Positions 2,019 to 25,123 of a stretch of DNA of 64,000 nucleotides are shown here, piece by piece. Source of the stretch: an uncultured virus (IMG/VR IMGVR_UViG_3300020042_010191) (lineage: Duplodnaviria > Heunggongvirae > Uroviricota > Caudoviricetes); the IMG/VR virus record IMGVR_UViG_3300020042_010191, one strand, 5' to 3'. The number at the start of each line of letters is the position of its first letter. Positions within the stretch are counted from its first letter, which is position 1. The notes beneath the pieces were generated by a model. That model ran no database searches and was not told where the DNA came from. It was given only the letters and a program-made list of their open reading frames with translations. A program made the position numbers and the translations under genes.

Positions 2019-2709
2019 TTTAATAGGTCTTAGATATAACATGCTTATTGTTTTAGAAAGCCTACCTAGTACAAATCTTGGAACTAGTGGTTACAAAAAA
2101 AGAATGTGGCTATGTAAATGCGACTGTGGAAATTTGACTAAAGCAGCTACAGGAGATCTTACTGGGGACCATAAGAAATCTTGCGGTTGTTTAACTGCTA
2201 CGAAATCAGCTCAAAACTCTATAAATTCAAGGCATAAGATAGCTAAACAAGACGCTGGATATAGGAGTATTTATTCAAGTTACAAGGGAAACGCAAGGTC
2301 AAGAGAATTAAATTTTAATGTTGATTTTGACTATGCGGTAAGTATTATGAAGTCTAATTGCCATTATTGTGGAATAGAGCCATCTAATATTTATATGAAA
2401 TCTTATTACAATGCGACTTATAATGGAATTGATAGAGTAGATAATACTAAAGGATATGAAAATGACAATGTTGTTTCTTGTTGCAAGATGTGTAACATAG
2501 CAAAAAATAATAACACAGAGCAAGAGTTTATTACATGGATCAGTAGAGCCTATCATCACCAAAACAATAAGATGATTGTGAGAAAGAAGATGTGCGCCGA
2601 TGCATTCGAATGGCTTGAGCAGCAGCTTTACAAAACAAAGTGGGACGAGCTCACACACAATGAGAAGATGAATATTTTCGGATCAGCAAGACTAATGGCT
2701 AACCTTTAA
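1999..2709 (+). CDS. HNH homing endonuclease
   Basis: WLCKCDCGN, KSCGC, CHYCG, GIDRVDNTKGY...NVVSCCKMCN. Confidence 0.85.
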   Translation: MGAKQRNLIGLRYNMLIVLESLPSTNLGTSGYKKRMWLCKCDCGNLTKAATGDLTGDHKKSCGCLTATKSAQNSINSRHKIAKQDAGYRSIYSSYKGNARSRELNFNVDFDYAVSIMKSNCHYCGIEPSNIYMKSYYNATYNGIDRVDNTKGYENDNVVSCCKMCNIAKNNNTEQEFITWISRAYHHQNNKMIVRKKMCADAFEWLEQQLYKTKWDELTHNEKMNIFGSARLMANL

Positions 2710-2720
2710 ATCAGAATAAG

Positions 2721-2957
2721 ATGACAGCAGTAGAAAAAATAATTGCAGAAATAAACAATGAACTCCAAACCCTTGAAAGTTTACACGGAAAAGAAATATT
2801 TGGAAGAAAAGTAGGTTTGGCATTTGCTAAAAGAGTAGCAGAACAAGCCAAAGAAATGGAGAAGGAGCAAATAGTAACTGCTCATTATCAAGGATATAGA
2901 AATGATATTGGTACTACTGAAGTATCAGAACAATACTACAACGAAACCTTTAAATAA
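2721..2957 (+). CDS. Cassette protein (TAVE...AKEMEKEQI...YYNETFK type)
   Basis: Starts at the repeat ATG. Confidence 0.7.
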   Translation: MTAVEKIIAEINNELQTLESLHGKEIFGRKVGLAFAKRVAEQAKEMEKEQIVTAHYQGYRNDIGTTEVSEQYYNETFK

Positions 2958-2964
2958 GAATAAG

Positions 2965-3105
2965 ATGGAAAATAGATTAATAGAAAAAATGAAAGGCATG
3001 GTTCTCATTATAGTAATAGCAATATTGGGATTTGGTATTGTAAATACATTTATATTATTCCAGAGAATACAAGATTTAGAAAATAAAATAGAAGCGATTA
3101 AATAA
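2965..3105 (+). CDS. Cassette membrane microprotein
   Basis: Starts at the repeat ATG; one hydrophobic helix. Confidence 0.6.
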   Translation: MENRLIEKMKGMVLIIVIAILGFGIVNTFILFQRIQDLENKIEAIK

Positions 3106-3112
3106 GAATAAT

Positions 3113-3250
3113 ATGACAGGTCTATTTTTATTCACATTCATTTTTATCATTGCTCATTTTTTTGAAAAGTCAGACTATGATAGAATGAAAGAAGCAGAAA
3201 AACTACAAGAAGCAGAAAAATACTATAACGAAACATTTAAATTAAAATAA
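3113..3250 (+). CDS. Cassette membrane microprotein, 45 aa (MTGLFLFTF...), paralog of 4678-4803
   Basis: Hand translation between two junction repeats. Confidence 0.65.
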   Translation: MTGLFLFTFIFIIAHFFEKSDYDRMKEAEKLQEAEKYYNETFKLK

Positions 3251-3251
3251 G

Positions 3252-3410
3252 ATGGAAAACATTACAATAAAAACAACATTAAAAGTTAGTGGTTATAAAT
3301 TAGGAAACACAACATTAGCACTACCTTACAAACCAAAATGGATTCATAGAAAGATGATGAGCATATTTTTTGGAGTAAAATGGGTAGATGAAACCTTTAA
3401 ATCAGAATAA
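3252..3410 (+). CDS. Cassette protein, 52 aa, ending ETFKSE
   Basis: Hand translation between two junction repeats. Confidence 0.65.
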   Translation: MENITIKTTLKVSGYKLGNTTLALPYKPKWIHRKMMSIFFGVKWVDETFKSE

Positions 3411-3411
3411 G

Positions 3412-3735
3412 ATGACAGCAGTAAAACAATTAACAGCAATGCAAGAACTAAGAGATGACTTAGTTTTAACTTTAGAAAATGGAAATGAAGCTCTTAATGA
3501 AATCAGTGACCCATTTATCCGTGAAACTTGTCAAAAGTTAGTAGAGATAACTCTTAATGAGATAATCAAAAGAATTGATGATGAGTTGTTAGGTAAATGT
3601 TATAGCGAGAAAGAAGTAAGAACGGCTTTTGCAATTGGTATGGACTATTATACTGAGCGTGAGGTATGGGATAAAAATTCTCCATCTCAAAAACTAGAAA
3701 ATTTACTAAATAAACAAGAAATTATTAACCTTTAA
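3412..3735 (+). CDS. Cassette protein
   Basis: Starts at the repeat ATG. Confidence 0.65.
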   Translation: MTAVKQLTAMQELRDDLVLTLENGNEALNEISDPFIRETCQKLVEITLNEIIKRIDDELLGKCYSEKEVRTAFAIGMDYYTEREVWDKNSPSQKLENLLNKQEIINL

Positions 3736-3746
3736 AACAAAATAAG

Positions 3747-4097
3747 ATGAAGAAAACTAAAAATAGTACCCCAAGTTCAGAATGGGAGTCTAAAGACAGA
3801 TGTCCTTCTTGCGGTAGCTTTTGTGATATACACTTAGACCTAGATGAAAATGACGAATGTAATGACTGCAGAAGTATTAAAACAGCAGTAGAATATATTT
3901 TAAATCTTGTAGTAGGAGAAGACGAGCAAGGAAAAGATGTTAGAGTTAAGGACACCATTAGTAAGTCTGAAATTGCCAAAGCCAAAGAAATGGAGAAGCA
4001 AGAGAAGATTGAATTTGCTTGCAAAGTTTATAATGAAAATTATCTAAAGGATAAATCTTTTAGAAAAATAGCAGAAGAATTAATTAAATCAGAATAA
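3747..4097 (+). CDS. Cassette protein with CxxC/CxxC zinc-finger-like N-terminus and AKEMEK module
   Basis: CPSC...CNDC; ends KSE inside the repeat. Confidence 0.65.
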   Translation: MKKTKNSTPSSEWESKDRCPSCGSFCDIHLDLDENDECNDCRSIKTAVEYILNLVVGEDEQGKDVRVKDTISKSEIAKAKEMEKQEKIEFACKVYNENYLKDKSFRKIAEELIKSE

Positions 4098-4098
4098 G

Positions 4099-4281
4099 AT
4101 GAATAAGTTAAAAATGATATACATTAGTTTATTTAAAGTTATAACTCTTGAACAAGCACTTGAATATAATTTAACATTTGTAAGAAATGTTTATGGTGAT
4201 GAAATTAACCAAATAAATTGTAGGTCAATTTGGGCTGATAAAAATGGTAGAATTTATAGAGTTGACTCTTTTTACAACTAA
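4099..4281 (+). CDS. Cassette protein
   Basis: Flanked by exact repeats. Confidence 0.65.
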   Translation: MNKLKMIYISLFKVITLEQALEYNLTFVRNVYGDEINQINCRSIWADKNGRIYRVDSFYN

Positions 4282-4299
4282 CCTTTAAATCAGAATAAG

Positions 4300-4530
4300 A
4301 TGACATCGGATATTACATTAGACATAAAAGATTATGTTTACTTGCAAAGACGTTCTTCATACAATAACAACTACTACCAATACAAAGAAACGGGTGAAGT
4401 TATTTTAGAACAATATGAGGAGTGTTCAAACGCCTATGAGTATTTTCTTTATGTTCAAGACCAACCATTAACCTTTTTAGGTGCAAGTGTTAAGAGTATT
4501 GAAGATGGTATTATTACACTAACTAAATAA
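4300..4530 (+). CDS. Cassette protein
   Basis: Flanked by repeats. Confidence 0.65.
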   Translation: MTSDITLDIKDYVYLQRRSSYNNNYYQYKETGEVILEQYEECSNAYEYFLYVQDQPLTFLGASVKSIEDGIITLTK

Positions 4531-4541
4531 ATCAAAATAAT

Positions 4542-4676
4542 ATGACAGCATTAATTATAACATCATTTTTATTTGTGGCATCCGTGTTTTACTACATTGG
4601 AAAGCACCAAGAGAGAATTGAGTGGAACAAACTAATTAAAGACGGAATACTTCCTAAACCAAATAAATCAGAATAA
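4542..4676 (+). CDS. Cassette membrane microprotein, 44 aa, ending KSE
   Basis: Hand translation MTALIITSFLFVASVFYYIGKHQ... Confidence 0.6.
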   Translation: MTALIITSFLFVASVFYYIGKHQERIEWNKLIKDGILPKPNKSE

Positions 4677-4677
4677 G

Positions 4678-4803
4678 ATGACAGGACTATTTTTATTTAC
4701 ATTGATTTTTATCATTGCTCAATTTTTTGAGAAATCAGATTATGATAGAATGAAAGAAGCGGAAAGGATAACTTCTTTTACTAAACAAGAAGTGGGGAAT
4801 TGA
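4678..4803 (+). CDS. Cassette membrane microprotein, 41 aa, paralog of 3113-3250
   Basis: MTGLFLFTLIFIIAQFFEKSDYDRMKEAE. Confidence 0.65.
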   Translation: MTGLFLFTLIFIIAQFFEKSDYDRMKEAERITSFTKQEVGN

Positions 4804-4916
4804 TAAGAAAATAAAAGGTATAAATACCCTAATTAACTAGTAATCGTTCTACTCCTTTGAAAAACTATTGTCGTTTTATTATAAAAAAACTAATTTTATA
4901 AAAAAAACAAAAAACC

Positions 4917-5780
4917 ATGAAAAACCTATTATTATTTTTATTTCTATTACCAACAGTATTGTGGAGTCAATATCAGAAAATGTCCATATATTACACTTTA
5001 CCCACATTCCAATATCCAAACGATACGTGTACAATTCACGTAGAACCCGCACAATGTACTAATGACGCTTGTTTAATCAGTGGATACATTCAAGGAGGAA
5101 CTAGACCTTATTTCTACAAATGGAGATATGTTTCTAACAACACAATAGTTCAGGACTCAACACCGTCTACTATTGTACCTGGATATGATTACCCACAAGG
5201 ATTTGATATATTAGACCGATTTAATGTCAGTCTGAATACACCACAAGTAAGATTGTTTGGTACTTTAAATTGGACAGGACAATGGGAACTAACCGTAATT
5301 GATAGTCGTGTTACTTCGGCAACTGATAAACACGATACATTAAAAGTTATTGTTACTCATAAGTGGCCAGAGACACCAATCATTAATATAAATGCTTGTG
5401 ATACTTGTGTTGATGATTATCTATGGGTCACACCTCAGAGAGGAACACCACCATATAACATCACGGTATCAAGAATAGTTGATGATTTTGGTGGTTCTGT
5501 TGTAGAATACTATGGTGAACATTGTAGTGGATTAAATATTACCAATTTGGCTCAATTACCTCCAGCCTGTTATATTATTTCGGTTGCCGATGTTTGGGGT
5601 TGTTATAATGAAACAACATATTGTTATGGTGTAACGACAGGTATTGATGAATTACAATTAAATAAAGAGTTGGTAAAGATAGTTGATTTAATGGGAAGAC
5701 CAACCGAACCAACACCAAATAAAATCCTGATATATTATTATAGTGACGGAACAATTATTAAACAATTAAAAACAGAATAA
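4917..5780 (+). CDS. Secreted protein with SprB-like repeats and T9SS type A-like C-terminal sorting domain
   Basis: Signal peptide followed by Q; GGTRPYFYKW and GTPPYNI repeats; C-terminal TGIDE...KIVDLMGR...ILIYYYSDGTIIK. Confidence 0.7.
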   Translation: MKNLLLFLFLLPTVLWSQYQKMSIYYTLPTFQYPNDTCTIHVEPAQCTNDACLISGYIQGGTRPYFYKWRYVSNNTIVQDSTPSTIVPGYDYPQGFDILDRFNVSLNTPQVRLFGTLNWTGQWELTVIDSRVTSATDKHDTLKVIVTHKWPETPIININACDTCVDDYLWVTPQRGTPPYNITVSRIVDDFGGSVVEYYGEHCSGLNITNLAQLPPACYIISVADVWGCYNETTYCYGVTTGIDELQLNKELVKIVDLMGRPTEPTPNKILIYYYSDGTIIKQLKTE

Positions 5781-5781
5781 G

Positions 5782-5937
5782 ATGAAGATAACAGTAGAAG
5801 TAGAAGGAGTAACTTATTCCGCAGAAATACAAGAAGCTAAAAGTTTTGATACACTAATTGATTTAGTGGTTAATTTATCAAGAGCAGTTGGTTATACAGA
5901 TGAAACTATTAATAAACGGATAAAAGAAGAACAATGA
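5782..5937 (+). CDS. Cassette protein, 51 aa
   Basis: Starts at the repeat ATG; ATGA-coupled to the next gene. Confidence 0.6.
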   Translation: MKITVEVEGVTYSAEIQEAKSFDTLIDLVVNLSRAVGYTDETINKRIKEEQ

Positions 5938-6230
5938 AATTAACAACAAATGAACAGGGAGTAATCCAATTGGAAGAAGTATTTAATGGGATTATTTTAA
6001 AAACAAAAGATGGTGAGGAAATGACCATCTGTATGAGAGATGGTGGATTTGAGTTTAGATATCAAGGAGAACGGTATTTCGCAAAAGAAGGATTTGTTAT
6101 GCAATTTAAGAAATCAATTCGTGGTAATAATTTAGTAGACCAAAGTCACGAAGAAGATTTGGTGGGACCAGGACCAGCACACTTAGCAAGGATGAGTGAA
6201 AAAAATAGATATATACCTAAATCAGAATAA
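5934..6230 (+). CDS. Cassette protein ending KSE
   Basis: Ends inside an exact repeat. Confidence 0.65.
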   Translation: MKLTTNEQGVIQLEEVFNGIILKTKDGEEMTICMRDGGFEFRYQGERYFAKEGFVMQFKKSIRGNNLVDQSHEEDLVGPGPAHLARMSEKNRYIPKSE

Positions 6231-6480: not shown

Positions 6481-7053
6481 ATGAATTATCAAAGAATACA
6501 TGATCAAATCATTGAACGTGCGAAAACAAGAAAATTAAAAGGTTATCGAGAACGACATCACATCAACCCGCGGTGCCTAGGTGGAACAGATGATTTAGAT
6601 AATCTAGTTGAATTAACGGCTCGTGAGCATTTTATTATACATAAATTACTATGCGAAATTTATCCTAATAATAACAAATTAATTTATGCATACTGGATGA
6701 TGTGTAATATGAAATCTAATACACAAAATCGAAGTTATTTAATTAGTTCGCACGAATACGAACGAGCTAGATTGTTATTTAGCTATATGCATAGTAATAG
6801 AATAATAACTTCAGATACGAGAGAAAAATTAAGATTAGCTAGATTAGGTAAGACTATTAATATGCCTAATGGCCCATATACCCATACTACAGAAGCACGA
6901 GAAAAAATTCGAAATTCTAAGTTAGGAAAAAAACGAGGACCGTTGTCAGAAGACCAGAAAACTAAAATGTCATTAAAATTAAAAGGGCGTAAGTTATCTG
7001 ATGATCATAAGAAAAAAATAAGTGAGGCTCGTAAACGGAAAACTAATTTGTAG
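6481..7053 (+). CDS. HNH homing endonuclease with NUMOD3-like repeats
   Basis: ERHHINPRCLGGTDDLDNLVELTAREHFIIH; repeated (H/L)S/TxxxxxK(I/M)S units. Confidence 0.9.
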   Translation: MNYQRIHDQIIERAKTRKLKGYRERHHINPRCLGGTDDLDNLVELTAREHFIIHKLLCEIYPNNNKLIYAYWMMCNMKSNTQNRSYLISSHEYERARLLFSYMHSNRIITSDTREKLRLARLGKTINMPNGPYTHTTEAREKIRNSKLGKKRGPLSEDQKTKMSLKLKGRKLSDDHKKKISEARKRKTNL

Positions 7054-7471
7054 AATTAGATTTTACGGGTACTGCAGAAGAATACATAGTAAGCATATAC
7101 GAAGAACGCAAAGAGTAATACAAGTACGAGTATTAAGTATATAGTAAGTATATAAGCATATACATATACGTATAAAGATTCTCTATTACCCAGGTTTTCC
7201 CATAGACGCTACTACAGGGTAGAAATTGAGGATAGAGTCTAGTATGATCTCCCGCTCCCGTTATTTTTAGTTTGTATTCAGTAAAAGTACTAGTCGTATA
7301 TTTAGATTGATTTTTAAATTTAGTGTCTAGTAGCATCAGCTCGGGAAGGTTATATATCTCCCTGCCTGTCCTTCGCGTTTTAATGGGGCGTATGCTCTTT
7401 ATTACCCAGTCAATGGATATCTAGCATATTCGAGGCCCTAGATGTTCTTAAACGAACTAAAAGGGCTATCC

Positions 7472-7737
7472 TATTTTTAGTCCAATATAGTCTATTTTTA
7501 GTCCAATATGCGTTATTTTTAGATGAATCGACCTTCTCCCCCCGTCTATTTTTAGTCCAATTTCAGATTCTATTTTTAGAAGCATTGGGTTTATTTTTAG
7601 TTGACTCTCTATATATAGTGATTTCAATGCGTTTATTTTTAGATGGATATAGTCTATTTTTAGTCCAATATGTGTTATTTTTAGATGATTTTTAGTGTGT
7701 ATGCGTATATCTATTTTTAGATGTGGGTTATTTTTAG
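7472..7737. repeat. Phased TATTTTTAG repeat cluster (iteron-like)
   Basis: 11 exact copies at 7472, 7493, 7514, 7547, 7571, 7592, 7634, 7655, 7676, 7712, 7729; one more at 7262. Confidence 0.9.
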
Positions 7738-7859
7738 GTGCTGTATTTAGGTTTTAGTTCGGTTTCCTAGCTATTGAGCGTAAACATAATCCGTAACTTT
7801 TAGCTCGATCCGGTTGGATTCTCGCAGTATGTTTCATATAATATAAGAGTAAAAAGGAA

Positions 7860-7955
7860 ATGATTATGCCTTTAGTAGGATATATAGCAATTGGATTGAT
7901 AGCAGGCCTGTTTGCCTTAGGCATTTGGAATGACTTCATCCGACCTAGAAAGTAA
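7860..7955 (+). CDS. Membrane microprotein, 31 aa
   Basis: MIMPLVGYIAIGLIAGLFALGIWNDFIRPRK downstream of a TTGGAT-N17-TATAAT promoter. Confidence 0.55.
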   Translation: MIMPLVGYIAIGLIAGLFALGIWNDFIRPRK

Positions 7956-7960
7956 CGTTA

Positions 7961-8135
7961 GAAGGGATCCGGTGTTTGCTGGACCTTCACTATATAGTTC
8001 CAGGTTGTAACCACAGTCGATGCTCTCTGTTGGCGGCTCGATGAACACCTCAACCTGGACGACATTCGCTGGACCTGGTTTCTCTCTCTTATTTCCCAGG
8101 CGTGCACGTAGGGAGTCGTAATGGCTCCCTTTTTT
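7961..8135 (+). ncRNA. Putative structured small RNA or 3' RNA domain with terminator
   Basis: GC-rich; three stems (7961-7988, 7999-8059, 8074-8100) plus terminator stem 8110-8135. Confidence 0.55.
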
Positions 8136-8306
8136 ACAGTTCAATCGATGGTTTAAGTTCAACCAACGGTTTAAGTAGATTTCCATAGATATCATTTATA
8201 AGGATCCAACTTTCCATAAAAACATTTTATGAAACTTTTTTTGCCAAAATGCTTGACACGCACGGATATTTTGCTTATCTTTATATTATAATAAAAAATA
8301 AGAGAT

Positions 8307-8510
8307 ATGAAAAAGAACCGTTATTTAGTTAAAGTATTTGGAATCCAGGGCCGAGCTGTCAATGATGTTGATCTGCAATGGATCGTAACAGAAATTTCAG
8401 GCCATCATGCAATCCGATCAGTTAAGGAGCAATTGCAATGGTCACGTAAGTTAACCGACTTTGAGATTGCACAATATTCATTTAGTGCTGATTATTTAGA
8501 ATCTGCATAA
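8307..8510 (+). CDS. Early-region hypothetical protein
   Basis: Follows a promoter/leader unit. Confidence 0.7.
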   Translation: MKKNRYLVKVFGIQGRAVNDVDLQWIVTEISGHHAIRSVKEQLQWSRKLTDFEIAQYSFSADYLESA

Positions 8511-8594
8511 AAAACTTTTATGAAACTTTTTTTGGAAAAGACTAGGATCCTATCCTAAAAATGCTTATCTTTATATAAATTAAAAATAAGAGAT

Positions 8595-8723
8595 ATGAAG
8601 ACACTTAGAGAAAAGCAGGAGCATGCATTGCATTATGTATGTGGACTTGATTTTGACACGCTTAAGGCAATGTCAGATTCAGAAGTTAATCAGTTATTTA
8701 TAAAGCATTTAAAAAATATATAA
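8595..8723 (+). CDS. Early-region microprotein, 42 aa
   Basis: Hand translation after a leader unit. Confidence 0.6.
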   Translation: MKTLREKQEHALHYVCGLDFDTLKAMSDSEVNQLFIKHLKNI

Positions 8724-8726
8724 GAG

Positions 8727-9131
8727 ATGAAAAAGACAGCAAATTTAGCAACACAATTAAATGGATTCGCAAACGGAGTGATCTTAGACCCGCAGGGCAA
8801 CAACACAGACTGTTTCAATTTCTATGATTGGTTCTGTAAAGATTCTAGCTTGGAACGTAAATCATGGAATTTAATGAAGAAGGTAAAGACGTTCCTTAAA
8901 CATAATCCGGATATTGATTTATTAACGCATTACGTGTTCTTTAAGAACAATTGTCCATTGAATGGTCCAATGTATGATGATTTTAGAATTTGCAACGTTG
9001 AGACAAGCGATGTAGTATATACAGTAATTCCTAAATGTGGCCATTCTGGGTTAGCTGAAATATGGGGACGTGAAAATGGCTTCGAAGGCCCTATTAAGAC
9101 AGCTGAAACTTTTTCGAAACTTTTTTCATAA
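8727..9131 (+). CDS. Early-region conserved phage protein (FYDWFC, FFKNNCP...YDDFRI)
   Basis: ORF with TAAGAG leader. Confidence 0.7.
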   Translation: MKKTANLATQLNGFANGVILDPQGNNTDCFNFYDWFCKDSSLERKSWNLMKKVKTFLKHNPDIDLLTHYVFFKNNCPLNGPMYDDFRICNVETSDVVYTVIPKCGHSGLAEIWGRENGFEGPIKTAETFSKLFS

Positions 9132-9190
9132 AAGATTAGGTTCGCATTCTGAAAATGCTTATCTTTATATTATAATAAAAAATAAGAGAT

Positions 9191-9565
9191 ATGAAAAAAG
9201 AAATTAAAACACAGTACGGAATCCAAATCGTTAAACCTTGGAGCAAAGAGATGTATGCACACAATGAGATGGTTGCAGAAGCAGTCCGCATATTAGTAAC
9301 TCAACGTTGGGAGAATGAATTAAATGCATTTGAAGAAACATTGGGTGAGTTTGCTGAAGATGTAGAATGGATCTCTGAAGCACCTAAAAGCTTAAAGGAC
9401 ATACAACGAGCCATTACATGTTACGGGTTTGGTTATGGCTATGACGTAGAGCGAGTATCTCGCATAGTAGAGCAAGAGTTAGAAGATGCTCCATTATACC
9501 GTCTCAATGAGATAGCAGAAGAGTTAGAGTTAGATTTGAAAGTAGGGTTTGTTGGCTTTAATTAG
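9191..9565 (+). CDS. Early-region hypothetical protein
   Basis: Leader unit. Confidence 0.7.
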   Translation: MKKEIKTQYGIQIVKPWSKEMYAHNEMVAEAVRILVTQRWENELNAFEETLGEFAEDVEWISEAPKSLKDIQRAITCYGFGYGYDVERVSRIVEQELEDAPLYRLNEIAEELELDLKVGFVGFN

Positions 9566-9608
9566 CCAGCAAACTTTTCTATATTATATAAATTAAAAAA
9601 TAAGAGCA

Positions 9609-9791
9609 ATGATAAATTTAGATAAAGCAATATTGATTGGAGAAGGCAAATGGGTTAATGATGTAGCTCATCAAGTATATAAACAAGATGATAGTTACTA
9701 CGTAGTTACAATTGTTGATCACCAAAATAAAGAAGTTATAGAGGAATTGACTGTTGAAATCGAAGAGAAAGATATCAATCAATATATCTAA
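9609..9791 (+). CDS. Early-region hypothetical protein
   Basis: AAATAAGAG leader. Confidence 0.65.
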   Translation: MINLDKAILIGEGKWVNDVAHQVYKQDDSYYVVTIVDHQNKEVIEELTVEIEEKDINQYI

Positions 9792-9863
9792 AAAAAAGCT
9801 GCTAAAAAGCTTGTTTCCTATCAGAATAAACCTTATCTTTAAGTATTATAAAAAATAAGAGCG

Positions 9864-10130
9864 ATGACACATAAAGAGTTTAAATTGACAGTTAAGAAAG
9901 ACATAATGGAGTCAGCTGGATATAATAGACAAGCTGTAAAGTACCATGTAGGAGATACAATGATAGTTGATGAGGCTACGTTCGAGCGCATCCAATCCGG
10001 AAAGTTTGTTGAAAGAATGACACAAGAAGGCTTTATCCATTTTGATAAGTATAACTTTGAGAATGAGGTTTCATTCACAGCCATCACCGTTGAGTATGGG
10101 ATCCGTAGATTAGGTCAAAGAAAAAAGTAA
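9864..10130 (+). CDS. Early-region hypothetical protein
   Basis: Leader unit. Confidence 0.7.
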   Translation: MTHKEFKLTVKKDIMESAGYNRQAVKYHVGDTMIVDEATFERIQSGKFVERMTQEGFIHFDKYNFENEVSFTAITVEYGIRRLGQRKK

Positions 10131-10212
10131 AAAAAGTTTAAAAAAAGTTGCCAAAACGGTTGACACGCATCGATTTATTCCTTATCTTTAAGTATAATAA
10201 AAAATAAGAGAT

Positions 10213-10371
10213 ATGACAAAGACACAAAAAAAAGCATTAGCAAAGAAATGAGAAAAGCAATTAGCCGCGGCAGACAAGCAATGGGATGAAAAAGGACCAG
10301 ATGCAGCAGCATATTGCTACGGGTATTTGATTGGAACTATTCGCGAAACCATTTACCAATTAGAAAACTAA
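10213..10371 (+). pseudogene. Early-region gene interrupted by an in-frame TGA at 10249
   Basis: Full leader unit; MTKTQKKALAKK*EKQLAAADKQWDEKG...LEN. Confidence 0.55.
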
Positions 10372-11276: not shown

Positions 11277-11326
11277 GATCTGAACATTATTTTACTTATC
11301 TTTATTAAAATTAAAAAGAGAGATAT

Positions 11327-11527
11327 ATGACAAGAGACATTACAGTAGTAGATAGCTTAGCGGCAGTGACAAATCGATTTGATCAATACACGCTTTGCAA
11401 CGCAGTGCAATCCTTAACCCGACAAGCATTAGCCGAAGGCTTTGATGTTGAGGATATCAAAGCAGTGTTAAGTTTCATGATGGAAACGGAAGTAGATGTG
11501 ACAGTCGATGTTTGGGAATGTGAATAA
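11327..11527 (+). CDS. Early-region hypothetical protein
   Basis: Leader unit. Confidence 0.65.
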   Translation: MTRDITVVDSLAAVTNRFDQYTLCNAVQSLTRQALAEGFDVEDIKAVLSFMMETEVDVTVDVWECE

Positions 11528-13373: not shown

Positions 13374-13763
13374 ATGAAAAAAAATGAATTGATTGCAAAG
13401 TTAGAAGGCGCTAAAGAATTAACGTCAGTAGTATCGATCGACTTAGTATTGACAGCATTGGGTATGTTGGAAGATGAGACACCACAACCAAAGGGATTCA
13501 GTTTTAAGCCATCACAGTTTGAAATGTTGATGGACAAGATCCAGCAAGCAGTTGATGGTATGGATCGACGTGAGTTGGTAGACAGATCCTCAGCAGAGTT
13601 TGAGTTGGATTGGAATAATTGCATTAGCTTGAATGATGTGGAAGTTGACTTTGATTATGTATACAATAGCATCCGCGAAGAGTTGGAGGAGCTTGTTGAA
13701 GATGAAGAAGAAGAAACTGAGGAAGGCACCTTAAAGGATATTGAATCCGACACAGCAGAATAA
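13374..13763 (+). CDS. Early-region acidic protein
   Basis: Leader unit; very acidic C-terminus. Confidence 0.7.
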   Translation: MKKNELIAKLEGAKELTSVVSIDLVLTALGMLEDETPQPKGFSFKPSQFEMLMDKIQQAVDGMDRRELVDRSSAEFELDWNNCISLNDVEVDFDYVYNSIREELEELVEDEEEETEEGTLKDIESDTAE

Positions 13764-13829
13764 AAATATATCTCTCAGTCCAAAGCCCTAGCAGAAATGT
13801 TAGGGCATGCGGACGTAAAAAGAGAGCAT

Positions 13830-14009
13830 ATGAAAAAATTGAATCGTTACAAAGAGAATCTTCGAATAGACGGAGATCGAGTTATTTCTTATTCTACCCA
13901 TGTAGCAACCATTAATAGCAACACATTGCGGATATTAGGCTACTGGAGCAAGACAACCACTAAACATGTTAATTATGTAGCAGCAGAATTAGACCTAAAA
14001 AAAGTTTAA
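13830..14009 (+). CDS. Early-region conserved small protein (ISYSTHVA...WSKTTTKHVN)
   Basis: AAGAGAGCAT-ATG start. Confidence 0.65.
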   Translation: MKKLNRYKENLRIDGDRVISYSTHVATINSNTLRILGYWSKTTTKHVNYVAAELDLKKV

Positions 14010-14103: not shown

Positions 14104-15060
14104 ATGAGAGAGATGATGAACAATGTTTTTGAACCAGTAAGAGTAAAAGGTAAGTTAATGGGTAAGAATGTGGCAACGGGCCAATTCGCATCCAAGGATC
14201 AAATCCGACACATTCAATTGCTTAACGCAGAAAAGAATCGCGAAGTATTGTTTGTATCAGCAACGGGTAGAGTAACAAGAGTCCCAGCAGCACAGGCAGG
14301 CGTAGCAACGACTCCACCGCCAGCGATGAAGATGTCATTTCTTCTTGCCAAGGAGGCACAAGATCCATCGGAGATGTTCAAGAACATTGAGCGACTCACT
14401 AAAATGGTAGGGCGTGGATTGCAACCATCATTAGTTATAACGGGTAGTGCTGGCACAGGTAAGACTCACATTGTAAAGAGCACCTTAGAAGAAATGGGTT
14501 TGAAGGAATCCACAGACTTTGTTCACTTCAAGGGACGTGCAACACCGGCCGGCTTGTTTGTTACCCTTTATGAGAACAATGACAAGATCATAGTGTTGGA
14601 TGACTGCGATTCGGTATTCAAAGACGATGATGCAGTGAACATCCTTAAAGGAGCATTAGACAGCTATGACACACGCAAGATCTCTTACATCAGCACCAAG
14701 AGCCTCAAAGACGAGTTTGGCAGTGAAGTGCCGCGCCACTTTGAATTCTCAGGTCGCATCATCTTCATCAGCAATATCAACCAAAGCAAATTGGATGAAG
14801 CAATTCGTTCACGCAGCTTTGTAGCAGATGTTGATTTGACCAACGACCAAATGTTTGAGCGCATCGAGCAGCTCATGGAGAAGATGGAGTCACGAGTTCC
14901 AGCAGCAGCTAAGGCCCAGGCATTAGAATTGATGAAGGAGCTCGACAAAGAATATGAAATTGAAATCAACCTCCGTAGCTTCATCAAAGCGGCTCGCATT
15001 TGTGCAATGGGCTTCGAGAATCCAAAGATGCTTGTAGCAGAGCAAATTTGTAAATTGTAA
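14104..15060 (+). CDS. AAA+ family ATPase
   Basis: Walker A GSAGTGKT, Walker B IIVLDDCD, sensor FISN, AIRSR arginine finger. Confidence 0.85.
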   Translation: MREMMNNVFEPVRVKGKLMGKNVATGQFASKDQIRHIQLLNAEKNREVLFVSATGRVTRVPAAQAGVATTPPPAMKMSFLLAKEAQDPSEMFKNIERLTKMVGRGLQPSLVITGSAGTGKTHIVKSTLEEMGLKESTDFVHFKGRATPAGLFVTLYENNDKIIVLDDCDSVFKDDDAVNILKGALDSYDTRKISYISTKSLKDEFGSEVPRHFEFSGRIIFISNINQSKLDEAIRSRSFVADVDLTNDQMFERIEQLMEKMESRVPAAAKAQALELMKELDKEYEIEINLRSFIKAARICAMGFENPKMLVAEQICKL

Positions 15061-15080
15061 ATCATATCTCTCAATATGAA

Positions 15081-15110
15081 GGATCCGGCATCGAAAGGTG
15101 TCGGATTCTA
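15081..15110 (+). terminator. Stem-loop after the ATPase
   Basis: GGATCCGGCATC-GAAA-GGTGTCGGATTC hairpin. Confidence 0.5.
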
Positions 15111-24639: not shown

Positions 24640-24736
24640 TTTTTTAAACTTTTATTTTTTATTGGTTGGATTGTACTAACTTATTTTATATATTATTAAT
24701 ATAATTAACCAGTTAATCATTTAAAAAATAAGAGAC

Positions 24737-25123
24737 ATGAAACGTTTATTTCTTTCCGCTATTTTTGCAATCATTGCACTTGCAAGTAATGCTCAAGAAG
24801 TTATTGCAGTAAAAGTAACCGAATATCGTTTAACAGTTTTTACTGATACAAATTCTAGACAAAGTGAATTTATTCCGTATACAGCAACTTACTTTTTTGA
24901 TATAGATAATAATATTATTACATCGTTTATTAATGGCAATGTTGTTACAAAGAGTGTATTTACATGTGACATTACTGATGAAGACGGCGTTCGTATTGTT
25001 GGGTTTACATACAATGACTCTCCGCATTTTTCTTGGATAATTAATTTAACTACTCGAGAAATTACATATCGCGAAGGATACATGACGGAAGATTGGTTGT
25101 TTGAATTTGTAGCAAAATTTTAA
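24737..25123 (+). CDS. Secreted protein (signal peptide followed by Gln)
   Basis: MKRLFLSAIFAIIALASNA-Q. Confidence 0.7.
   Translation: MKRLFLSAIFAIIALASNAQEVIAVKVTEYRLTVFTDTNSRQSEFIPYTATYFFDIDNNIITSFINGNVVTKSVFTCDITDEDGVRIVGFTYNDSPHFSWIINLTTREITYREGYMTEDWLFEFVAKF

Follow-up and report, generated by a model that had tools for sequence, protein, structure and literature searches.

The subject of this report is an RNA unit at positions 7814-8136 of a 64,000-nucleotide (nt) stretch of DNA from an uncultured virus of the Caudoviricetes (IMG/VR record IMGVR_UViG_3300020042_010191; one strand, 5' to 3'), hereafter the window. The window is part of a large T4-like myovirus with a G+C content of ~33%, and the unit is a discrete one, with a conserved promoter, a small hydrophobic open reading frame (ORF), GC-rich hairpins and a terminator. 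A preliminary description had proposed that a small RNA (sRNA) made here displays a loop that pairs with a leader shared by the early genes, and that it switches the whole early regulon in this way.

The RNA unit and its loop

The unit comprises the following features:

7814..7842, + strand: promoter TTGGAT-N17-TATAAT, with the same geometry in 17/18 related units
7860..7955, + strand: 31-codon ORF for a small hydrophobic peptide, with one predicted membrane helix and a basic tail, as judged by eye
7961..7988, + strand: hairpin 1 (GAAGG...CCUUC) of the minimum free energy (MFE) fold; GAAGGGAUC...CCUUC is recognisable in relatives
7999..8059, + strand: hairpin 2 of the MFE fold, with conserved ACCACAG and GAACAC internal motifs
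8074..8100, + strand: CU-loop hairpin (type A anti-leader), stem CCUGG/CCAGG, with the 17-nt unpaired loop UUUCUCUCUCUUAUUUC at 8079-8095
8110..8136, + strand: intrinsic terminator, a 9-bp stem at 8110-8130 followed by a T run, from fold and terminator prediction

The promoter and the 31-codon ORF after it lie where the preliminary description had placed them, and its GC-rich multi-hairpin element ending in a terminator is borne out by the fold of 7955-8135, which gives three hairpins followed by the terminator. On the + strand this fold reaches -61.7 kcal/mol (z-score -2.6), a value equalled by 4/200 shuffles; the minus strand of the same region is not better folded than its shuffles (z-score -1.0). 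The G+C content is 45-53% across 7900-8149, against 22-40% in the flanks. As for the promoter, its -35 box agrees with TTGACA at 3/6 positions only, and a generic promoter scan did not list it. Nevertheless, TTGGnn-N17-TATWAT with an exact 17-nt spacer stands ahead of 17 of the 18 related units examined, the remaining one (relative L004) having TAATAT. With a promoter geometry of its own and an intrinsic terminator, the unit is presumably transcribed from this promoter.

Across the related units, the length from the -10 box to the T run varies from 243 to 497 nt, and the 5' part is variable as well: small hydrophobic ORFs are present in 13/18, and an extra structured RNA module takes their place in 5. 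Relatives without the small ORF (L005, L008, L009, L012 and L015, e.g., L009 6800-7110, and also L026 7850-8020) have a longer structured RNA that starts with GGAAGGUUGAUCCAACC and shares the widespread module CGACGGGGUCCGGG...CCCGGCGGAUCG. These longer modules resemble the 3' end of 16S rRNA, yet they have no match to the small-subunit rRNA models of Rfam. In hairpin 2, the outer helix shows compensatory changes among relatives (alignment columns 46-53 with 97-104). The product of the 31-codon ORF has no match in Pfam. No version of the unit matches an Rfam family at gathering score, in the window or in 8 relatives, and at E<=10 over 7500-8400 the only match is a snoRNA-like chance one that lies elsewhere.

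Is the unit transcribed? Logan contigs of four metatranscriptome runs were placed on 7300-10300, and in three runs from three studies there are contigs wholly within the unit: 7861-8105 (245 nt), 7869-8072 (204 nt) and 7869-8000, plus 7858-7898. Positions 7603-7804 and 8108-8208 are uncovered in all four runs, which is a weak hint; small shares of the stretch occur in runs X17, X19 and X20, of which X17 was among the four, with contigs mainly on the repeated parts of the early cassettes. The limits of the contigs hint, if weakly, at a transcript that runs from ~7850, 7-9 nt past the -10 box, to the terminator. That the RNA element is real can be held with high confidence.

The leader to which the loop is complementary occurs in two forms:

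8296..8309, + strand: start of the first early gene, with leader AAATAAGAGAT and ATG; the leader recurs unchanged at 8584, 9180, 10202, 10913, 11598, 11905, 13023 and 15190, and with C as the spacer base at 24726
11313..11329, + strand: leader variant AAAAAGAGAGAT(AT) plus ATG; similar variants before 13374 and 13830; duplex with the loop of ~-11 kcal/mol

Within 8079-8095, the loop of the hairpin 8074-8100 contains the exact complement of AAATAAGAGA. This sequence occurs 11 times in the 64 kb, where 0.62 occurrences are expected and 0/100 shuffles reach 11. Ten of the occurrences are on the + strand, each 1 nt 5' of an ATG, and the single one on the - strand is the loop itself. The match of the reverse complement of the loop to the leaders of nine early genes, as set out in the preliminary description, was recovered with all nine start codons correct, as were the AAGAGAG variants before 11327, 13374 and 13830. 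One of the nine starts, 10213, opens just 12 codons, so that a perfect early cassette and leader (10202-10251) stand before a 12-codon ORF, which may be a decayed gene or a short peptide. The tenth site, 24726, belongs to gene 24737 and lies outside the early block. At 24666-24739, likewise outside that block, a second TTGGAT-N17-TATATT promoter drives this gene, with the early-type leader AAAAAATAAGAGAC; its product has 128 amino acids and a signal-peptide-like N-terminus.

The specificity of the match can be gauged against permuted loops. A loop duplex of -10 kcal/mol or better is predicted for 13/89 start regions, a count equalled by only 2/1000 permuted loops; with the threshold at -8 kcal/mol, it is 18/89, and 18/1000 permutations reach it. 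RNAcofold, in a calculation where the hairpin stem is opened and kissing is not modelled, gives the early leaders a net -4 to -5 kcal/mol, compared with -0.4 to -3 for five other starts (the sigma gene, one variant leader and three late genes).

Conservation of the loop and a second type of anti-leader

Relatives were retrieved by means of the phage sigma factor, which yielded 28 IMG/VR loci (95-58% identity) and 80 metagenome contigs. Twenty-four of the IMG/VR loci extend over the syntenic site, and in 21 of them there are one or two hairpins bearing the loop core CUCUCUUA. In L015 the CU elements are variants (UUUCUCUCUUUCC, with AUCUCUCA as the loop of a terminator), and the unit of L026 and L027, the group at 58% identity, is without a CU loop. 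At least 22 of the 80 contigs carry such hairpins, most of the others being too short to judge. An exact 16-mer scan of IMG/VR returned 55 loci; the 15 with G/C-rich hairpins are relatives that were already known, and the other 40 are unrelated contexts.

The core CUCUCUUA is invariant in relatives of 65-95% sigma-factor identity, while the stems that carry it are not: there are at least 11 different ones, all paired, for example CCUGG/CCAGG, GCCUAG/CUAGGC, GCACCCGGG/CCCGGGUGC, GGGGUCCUGGG/CCCGGGACUCC, GGGUGCUGG/CCAGCACCC and GGAUCCCGGG/CCUGGGAUCC. A covariation test was made on six 37-nt hairpins of the terminator type with identical loops: 89% of the cells pair, 4/11 pairs are changed on both sides, and the score of 0.455 compares with 0.256 in shuffles (0/500 reach 0.455), a signal that is lost when the partner columns are slid. 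These pair counts exclude the MAFFT alignments A1 and A3 of the hairpins, which are out of register. Owing to the variable modules, the RNAalifold consensus of the whole 3' domain is poor. Folding of the 3' domain leaves the loop unpaired, as do the full-length folds of 8/12 relatives, and it has no conserved pairing with the 5' leader of its own unit, the partial pairings in the window, L001 and L009 not being conserved.

Many relatives have two copies of the CU hairpin, the second of which often doubles as the terminator. The loops of terminators are normally free to vary. A loop that stays invariant in two tandem hairpins, one of them the terminator, therefore argues for a sequence-specific role beyond termination, and we consider such a role highly probable.

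What happens to the leader in the same phages? The relatives keep it on many early genes, and the loop stays complementary to the early leader of the phage in question. An enrichment test made relative by relative gives a mixed picture; it is clear in 11/17 loci, in which no more than 4/200 shuffles match the observed count. The preliminary description had suggested looking for covariation of the loop with the leader; no compensatory change was found for the 8074-8100 loop, and a joint change of seed and target across relatives is seen only for a second class of elements, designated type B.

These came to light when the + strand of the 64 kb was examined for stretches of at least 9 nt complementary to the leader. 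There are three only: the loop (8083-8094), 13768-13776 and 15063-15072. The latter two read (C)AUAUCUCUC, the complement of GAGAGAUAUG, which is the 3' half of the leader together with the start codon, and each lies immediately 3' of a stop codon, with a strong hairpin after it:

13764..13832, + strand: type B' anti-leader AUAUCUCUC (13768-13776), conserved hairpin, and leader plus AUG of gene 13830, after the stop of gene 13374-13763
15061..15108, + strand: type B anti-leader CAUAUCUCUC (15063-15072) plus hairpin 15081-15108, after the stop of gene 14104-15060

In the first of these, a GUCC...GGAC helix surrounds a conserved inner hairpin with the loop GCAGAAAUG, and the whole is highly conserved in relatives. 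In the predicted fold, leader and AUG of gene 13830 are bound in cis by the anti-leader, as are their counterparts in the MFE structures of 12/14 relatives, and in L012 the pairing shows the compensatory double change CAUGUCUCU:AGAGACAUG. This element is probably a translational coupling or operator structure. The second follows a gene for a clamp-loader-like protein of 318 amino acids (phrog_1250), and its hairpin has 13 bp and a z-score of -5.7. Within ~15 nt of the stop, CATATCTC is present in 13/15 relatives, including the group of 58% sigma identity and a marine contig; L004 has a partial copy, and L154, which lacks it, is the sole contig with different leaders (AAAACCUAAAA). On a read-through RNA, the 15063 anti-leader is predicted to bind the start of gene 15201, leader and AUG included. 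The element could be either a cis gate for that gene or an sRNA derived from a 3' untranslated region (UTR).

Further variants occur in other relatives. L164 has the anti-leader variants CAUAUCUCU and CAUAUCUUU, each ahead of a terminator hairpin, and they match the leader variants AGAGAUAUG and AAAGAUAUG, found in 6 and 3 leaders, respectively. Both anti-leader variants (CAUAUCUCU, CAUAUCUUU) also stand before the terminator in the 3' UTR of the sigma gene in L026/L027, where they co-occur with AGAGAUAUG/AAAGAUAUG leaders. In L156/L158, the terminator after the sigma gene has the loop UUAUCUCUCUUU. The observations on this second type of anti-leader were made after the fact; together they show selection for the pairing of leader and anti-leader in this phage clade, where it is a real principle of design.

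The phage, its host and the early leader

By its portal, terminase and baseplate matches, the phage is a distant T4-type myovirus. The window encodes the terminase, a gp20-type portal, baseplate wedge proteins, an SbcCD-like nuclease and homing endonucleases, as well as a sigma-70-family factor of the phage itself with regions 1.2, 2 and 4. A nucleotide search of a phage collection with the window gave a homing-endonuclease match only, and no close relative. By portal protein (~50% amino acid identity), the nearest isolates are Flavobacterium phage immuto and 'Microcystis' phage Mel-JY01, recorded on Microcystis. The early leader is absent from both (1+1 and 0 matches, which is the control level), and neither is suited to be a model system.

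Most of the DNA and RNA runs in which the stretch occurs are freshwater metagenomes. The genes are poor in Shine-Dalgarno (SD) sequences: AGG or GGA at -16 to -5 occurs in just 24/89 start regions, and generic anti-SD pairing of -6 kcal/mol or better is found for 7/72 genes without the leader and 0/17 genes with an AAGAG leader. The host is probably a bacterium that makes little use of SD sequences, Flavobacterium-like.

The early genes are built on a common cassette, in which a direct repeat AAAGTTT...AAAGTTT precedes a -35-like TTGACA or TTAGGATC, followed 17 nt later by (C)TTATCTTTA(TAT) and, ~20 nt further on, by AAAAAATAAGAGAT-ATG. The repeat, (A)AAGTTT-N3-4-AAAGTTT or a GAAACTTTTT form of it, stands just 5' of the -35 in nearly every early cassette (e.g., 8215-8250) and may be an UP element or a regulator site. 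The relatives have TTGGAT, TTGGTT, TTGACA or TTAGGA as the early -35, with the same 17-nt spacer. The preliminary description had assigned the RNA unit to a second promoter class, and this is doubtful, given that -35 and spacer are shared with the early promoters of relatives and that only the -10 differs (TATAAT versus TATCTT or TAAATT).

Counting the A of the AUG as 0, the leader has A at -2, -4, -6, -7 and -9 to -14. In Flavobacterium johnsoniae, whose ribosomes are SD-blind, initiation is promoted by A at -3, -6, -12 and -13, and the -7 promoter element is TAHHTTTG (PMC6847099). TATCTTTA agrees with this -7 element except for the last, nearly invariant base, G-5. By analogy, an SD-blind ribosome could well find in the leader a strong start region. 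The preliminary description had called on the sRNA to explain why the leader is so conserved; no sRNA is needed for that, because the phage is SD-poor and the leader supplies A at -6 and -9 to -14, and the subgroup at 58% identity keeps the leader without the loop. Pairing of the leader with the 16S tail was considered and rejected, since its geometry appears unsuitable.

A second leader type, TTAAATCAGAATAAG-ATG, precedes about ten tightly packed small genes in window 2700-5940 (2721, 3252, 3747, 4099, 4300, 4542, 4678, 5782 and others); beyond AAUAAG it is not complementary to the CU loop. Late genes have ATATTTATATAAAA ~20-25 nt 5' of the ATG (41130, 43172, 45313, 52150, 55092, 57127, 60990 and 62870, in window 41100-62870), which we take to resemble the T4 late promoter motif. 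Directly 5' of the RNA unit, at window 7260-7745, lies an array of at least 12 copies of TATTTTTAG(A/T), spaced by ~21 nt in places, and relatives have similar arrays (TATTTTTAG or TATTTTTCGTG) at the same place; such an array could be a replication origin or a regulator-binding array. Just left of it is a MobE-type homing endonuclease gene (window 6481-7053) whose nucleotide sequence is ~70% identical to T4-like phages from enterobacteria and Acinetobacter. A scan of the window for tRNA and transfer-messenger RNA genes gave none. Relatives have tRNA-model matches at L004 9616-9693 and 9800-9899 and at L006 5868-5979, in which the anticodon or variable region has 16-39 additional bases, and these may be intron-containing or disrupted phage tRNA genes.

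What the loop may do, and what it resembles

Pairing with the leader motif, whether in cis or in trans, is the probable role of the loop. Does it then act on the early mRNAs at large? Or does it serve only the gene that happens to lie downstream? The reading that we put forward, as a tentative one in which belief and doubt are nearly balanced, is that the RNA with the 8074-8100 loop is a trans-acting, multi-target repressor of the early regulon, as sequence and predicted fold suggest. The steps would be these. The region ~7850-8136 would be transcribed as one RNA of ~285 nt, with the small-peptide ORF and a structured 3' domain. The hairpin 8074-8100 would hold UUUCUCUCUCUUAUUUC single-stranded, and the loop would pair in trans with the purine-rich AAUAAGAGA (or AAGAGAGA) at -11 to -2 of the early mRNAs. 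The resulting helix of ~10 bp, ending 1-2 nt 5' of the AUG, would block initiation, so that early protein synthesis would be damped or shut off; cleavage of the duplex might occur in addition. A duplex so near the AUG should be incompatible with the single-stranded mRNA path of the 30S subunit, and repression is therefore what one can expect. It is in this sense that we infer action in trans, the direction of the effect and its timing. Action in trans is favored because the sequence is displayed in a closed hairpin loop, is frequently duplicated, belongs to a unit that has its own promoter and in which it forms part of the terminator or precedes it, and has no conserved pairing with the 5' leader. 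The further anti-leader elements at 13768 and 15063 indicate that leader pairing is used in the same phage.

Several points weigh against this repressor. The pairing case in this phage that looks proven, the one at 13768, is in cis and not in trans. A single RNA gene would face at least 13 strongly promoted targets through a duplex of merely 10 bp, AU-rich and of ~-11 kcal/mol. Shuffled CU-rich loops still pair at -8 kcal/mol with a mean of 5.1/89 of the A/G-rich start regions, and composition therefore contributes to the pairing. The promoter of the unit resembles the early promoters, so that the RNA may be made together with its targets, and a temporal switch is not evident. The RNA evidence consists of contigs, from which neither strand nor ends nor level can be read and to which DNA carry-over may have contributed. 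Among the relatives, the enrichment is weak in L004 (53/200 shuffles match), L024 (40), L006 (19), L015 (18), L020 (11) and L016 (9). The L016 lineage has UAAGAG on 0-1 of ~30-48 genes, and its loops are still CUCUCUUA(C/U), which leaves 7-8 bp. Finally, L026/L027 have a unit from the same promoter without the CU loop, and they keep the leader.

The strongest rival keeps the pairing and confines it to cis. On an RNA that reads through the terminator, the loop would pair with the first early leader (8296-8306) and keep this RNA from being translated, whereas an RNA from that gene's own promoter would be translated, by the same insulating or coupling logic as in the 13768 and 15063 elements. The behavior of those elements speaks for it, i.e., the cis pairing at 13768 in 12/14 relatives with its compensatory change, and the pairing of 15063 with the 15201 leader predicted on read-through RNA, as does the fact that the unit always lies directly 5' of the first early cassette. 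However, the sequence is shown in the loop of a stable hairpin of its own and not on a free strand, and it is often present twice. The second copy is a terminator, so that most transcripts should end before the downstream leader, and in some relatives (L015) the first early gene has a poorly matching leader. On balance, a purely cis role is rather unlikely.

Another explanation dispenses with the leader altogether. The CU-rich loop would be a protein-binding site, with ribosomal protein S1, an RNA chaperone of the RRM type (RbpB, for instance) and a phage protein among the candidates, or it would have a partner among the host RNAs, and the match to the leader would be a by-product of pyrimidines facing purines. 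In line with this, the 3' part of the loop (UUAUU or UUAC) is kept in the L016 lineage though the leaders there lack UAA, CU-rich permutations frequently pair with leaders, the conserved unpaired motifs of hairpin 2 look like protein contacts, and RbpB binds sRNAs in Bacteroides (PMC11697453). Against it stands the exact 10-nt complementarity, which only 2/1000 permutations equal in effect. Moreover, the same leader has its complement in two further conserved elements whose sequence is different, a fact for which composition by itself hardly accounts. We judge this explanation unlikely.

It is improbable that the hairpins simply form the 3' end of a message that encodes a small membrane peptide, similar to a type I toxin mRNA, and that the CU loop folds back on the unit's own leader and controls translation of the peptide. 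The small hydrophobic ORFs in 13/18 units would suit such an arrangement, as would the own leader AAAUAAGAAGAU of several relatives, which matches the loop over 8 nt, and the AUAAGAG that follows the -10 box in the window. Yet 5/18 units keep the CU hairpin without such an ORF, full-length folds have no conserved pairing of the loop with the 5' leader, and the leader of the ORF is not conserved. Very improbable, lastly, is a chance match or a relic of a minus-strand leader or gene: the match is short and AT-rich and a 92-codon minus-strand ORF (7917-8195) overlaps the element, but this ORF, dropped as a gene since it is not conserved, is broken in the 80%-identical relative L001, the minus strand folds like its shuffles, the T run and the stem covariation fit the + strand, and the motif is kept across the clade to ~65% sigma identity.

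A broader picture can be drawn, if only as a possibility. A clade of T4-like phages of SD-poor hosts may label its whole early regulon with one leader that serves as an address and is read by RNA, with a trans off switch having one or two anti-leader loops, which would be the RNA equivalent of RegA/RegB in T4, and with cis gates after stop codons for individual genes. If the repressor is as proposed, an RNA that reads a leader common to at least 12 separately promoted genes would be a compact and evolvable regulon switch, and it would show translation control in hosts whose ribosomes ignore Shine-Dalgarno sequences. What is known of how phages time their early genes concerns mostly promoters, proteins (RegA, RegB) and, in a few temperate phages, antisense RNAs with a single target, and a literature search with limited sets of terms found no description of a phage sRNA directed against a shared early leader.

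The case offers concrete partners, namely the loop of 17 nt, the leader of 10 nt and the two cis elements, for which a compensatory variant exists in nature, besides an uncatalogued family of structured RNAs in freshwater and marine phages. It also makes a prediction, namely that the RNA unit of the L154 lineage, whose leaders are AAAACCUAAAA, will be without CUCUCUUA or will have UUUUAGGUUUU-like loops; for this lineage, a leader-pattern scan gave single chance matches only, and a scan with the sigma protein gave no close relative.

Which known systems does the unit resemble? Pyrimidine-rich loops serve as seeds against the purine-rich leader or SD regions of several mRNAs in RepG of Helicobacter, where the loop is that of the terminator, and in RsaE/RoxS of Firmicutes; these are host sRNAs, directed against G-rich SD sequences or G-repeats. 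In the MS2 operons, translational coupling works by sequestered initiation regions. The elements at 13768 and 15063 have this classic layout, being placed where a ribosome that terminates on the preceding gene would cover them and being paired with the start region that follows, a likeness that does not clearly extend to the 8074-8100 loop.

With respect to function, the closest systems are the RegB endoribonuclease and the RegA repressor of T4, described in a review (PMC3014915) as a global post-transcriptional shut-off of many early mRNAs via a short motif in the start region. Both, however, are proteins, whereas the recogniser proposed here would be an RNA loop. In Bacteroides thetaiotaomicron, an SD-blind member of the Bacteroidota, the base-pairing sRNAs GibS and FopS repress several mRNAs at their initiation regions (PMC11697453). 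They are host-encoded and have as the seed a single-stranded 5' end before the terminator hairpin, whereas the seed of the unit is in a hairpin loop, and the unit has no match to them in Rfam. The type B elements, with a seed and then a hairpin, come closer to this layout than the 8074-8100 loop does.

The c4 antisense RNA of phages P1 and P7 exposes stretches in its loops that anneal to an mRNA of the phage itself at the ribosome-binding region and so block its translation (PMC12197685). The unit would share this principle, its loop being predicted to expose the complement of start regions of its own phage. The differences are that c4 targets one operon (ant) and serves lysogenic immunity, whereas here there are at least 13 separately promoted early genes in a T4-like myovirus of the lytic type. 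The C4 model of Rfam has no match to the unit, either at gathering score or at E<=10. The CI RNA of P4 is similar in principle to c4. By analogy of mechanism, and with these differences in mind, c4 RNA of P1/P7 is the closest kind of RNA described to the one proposed here.

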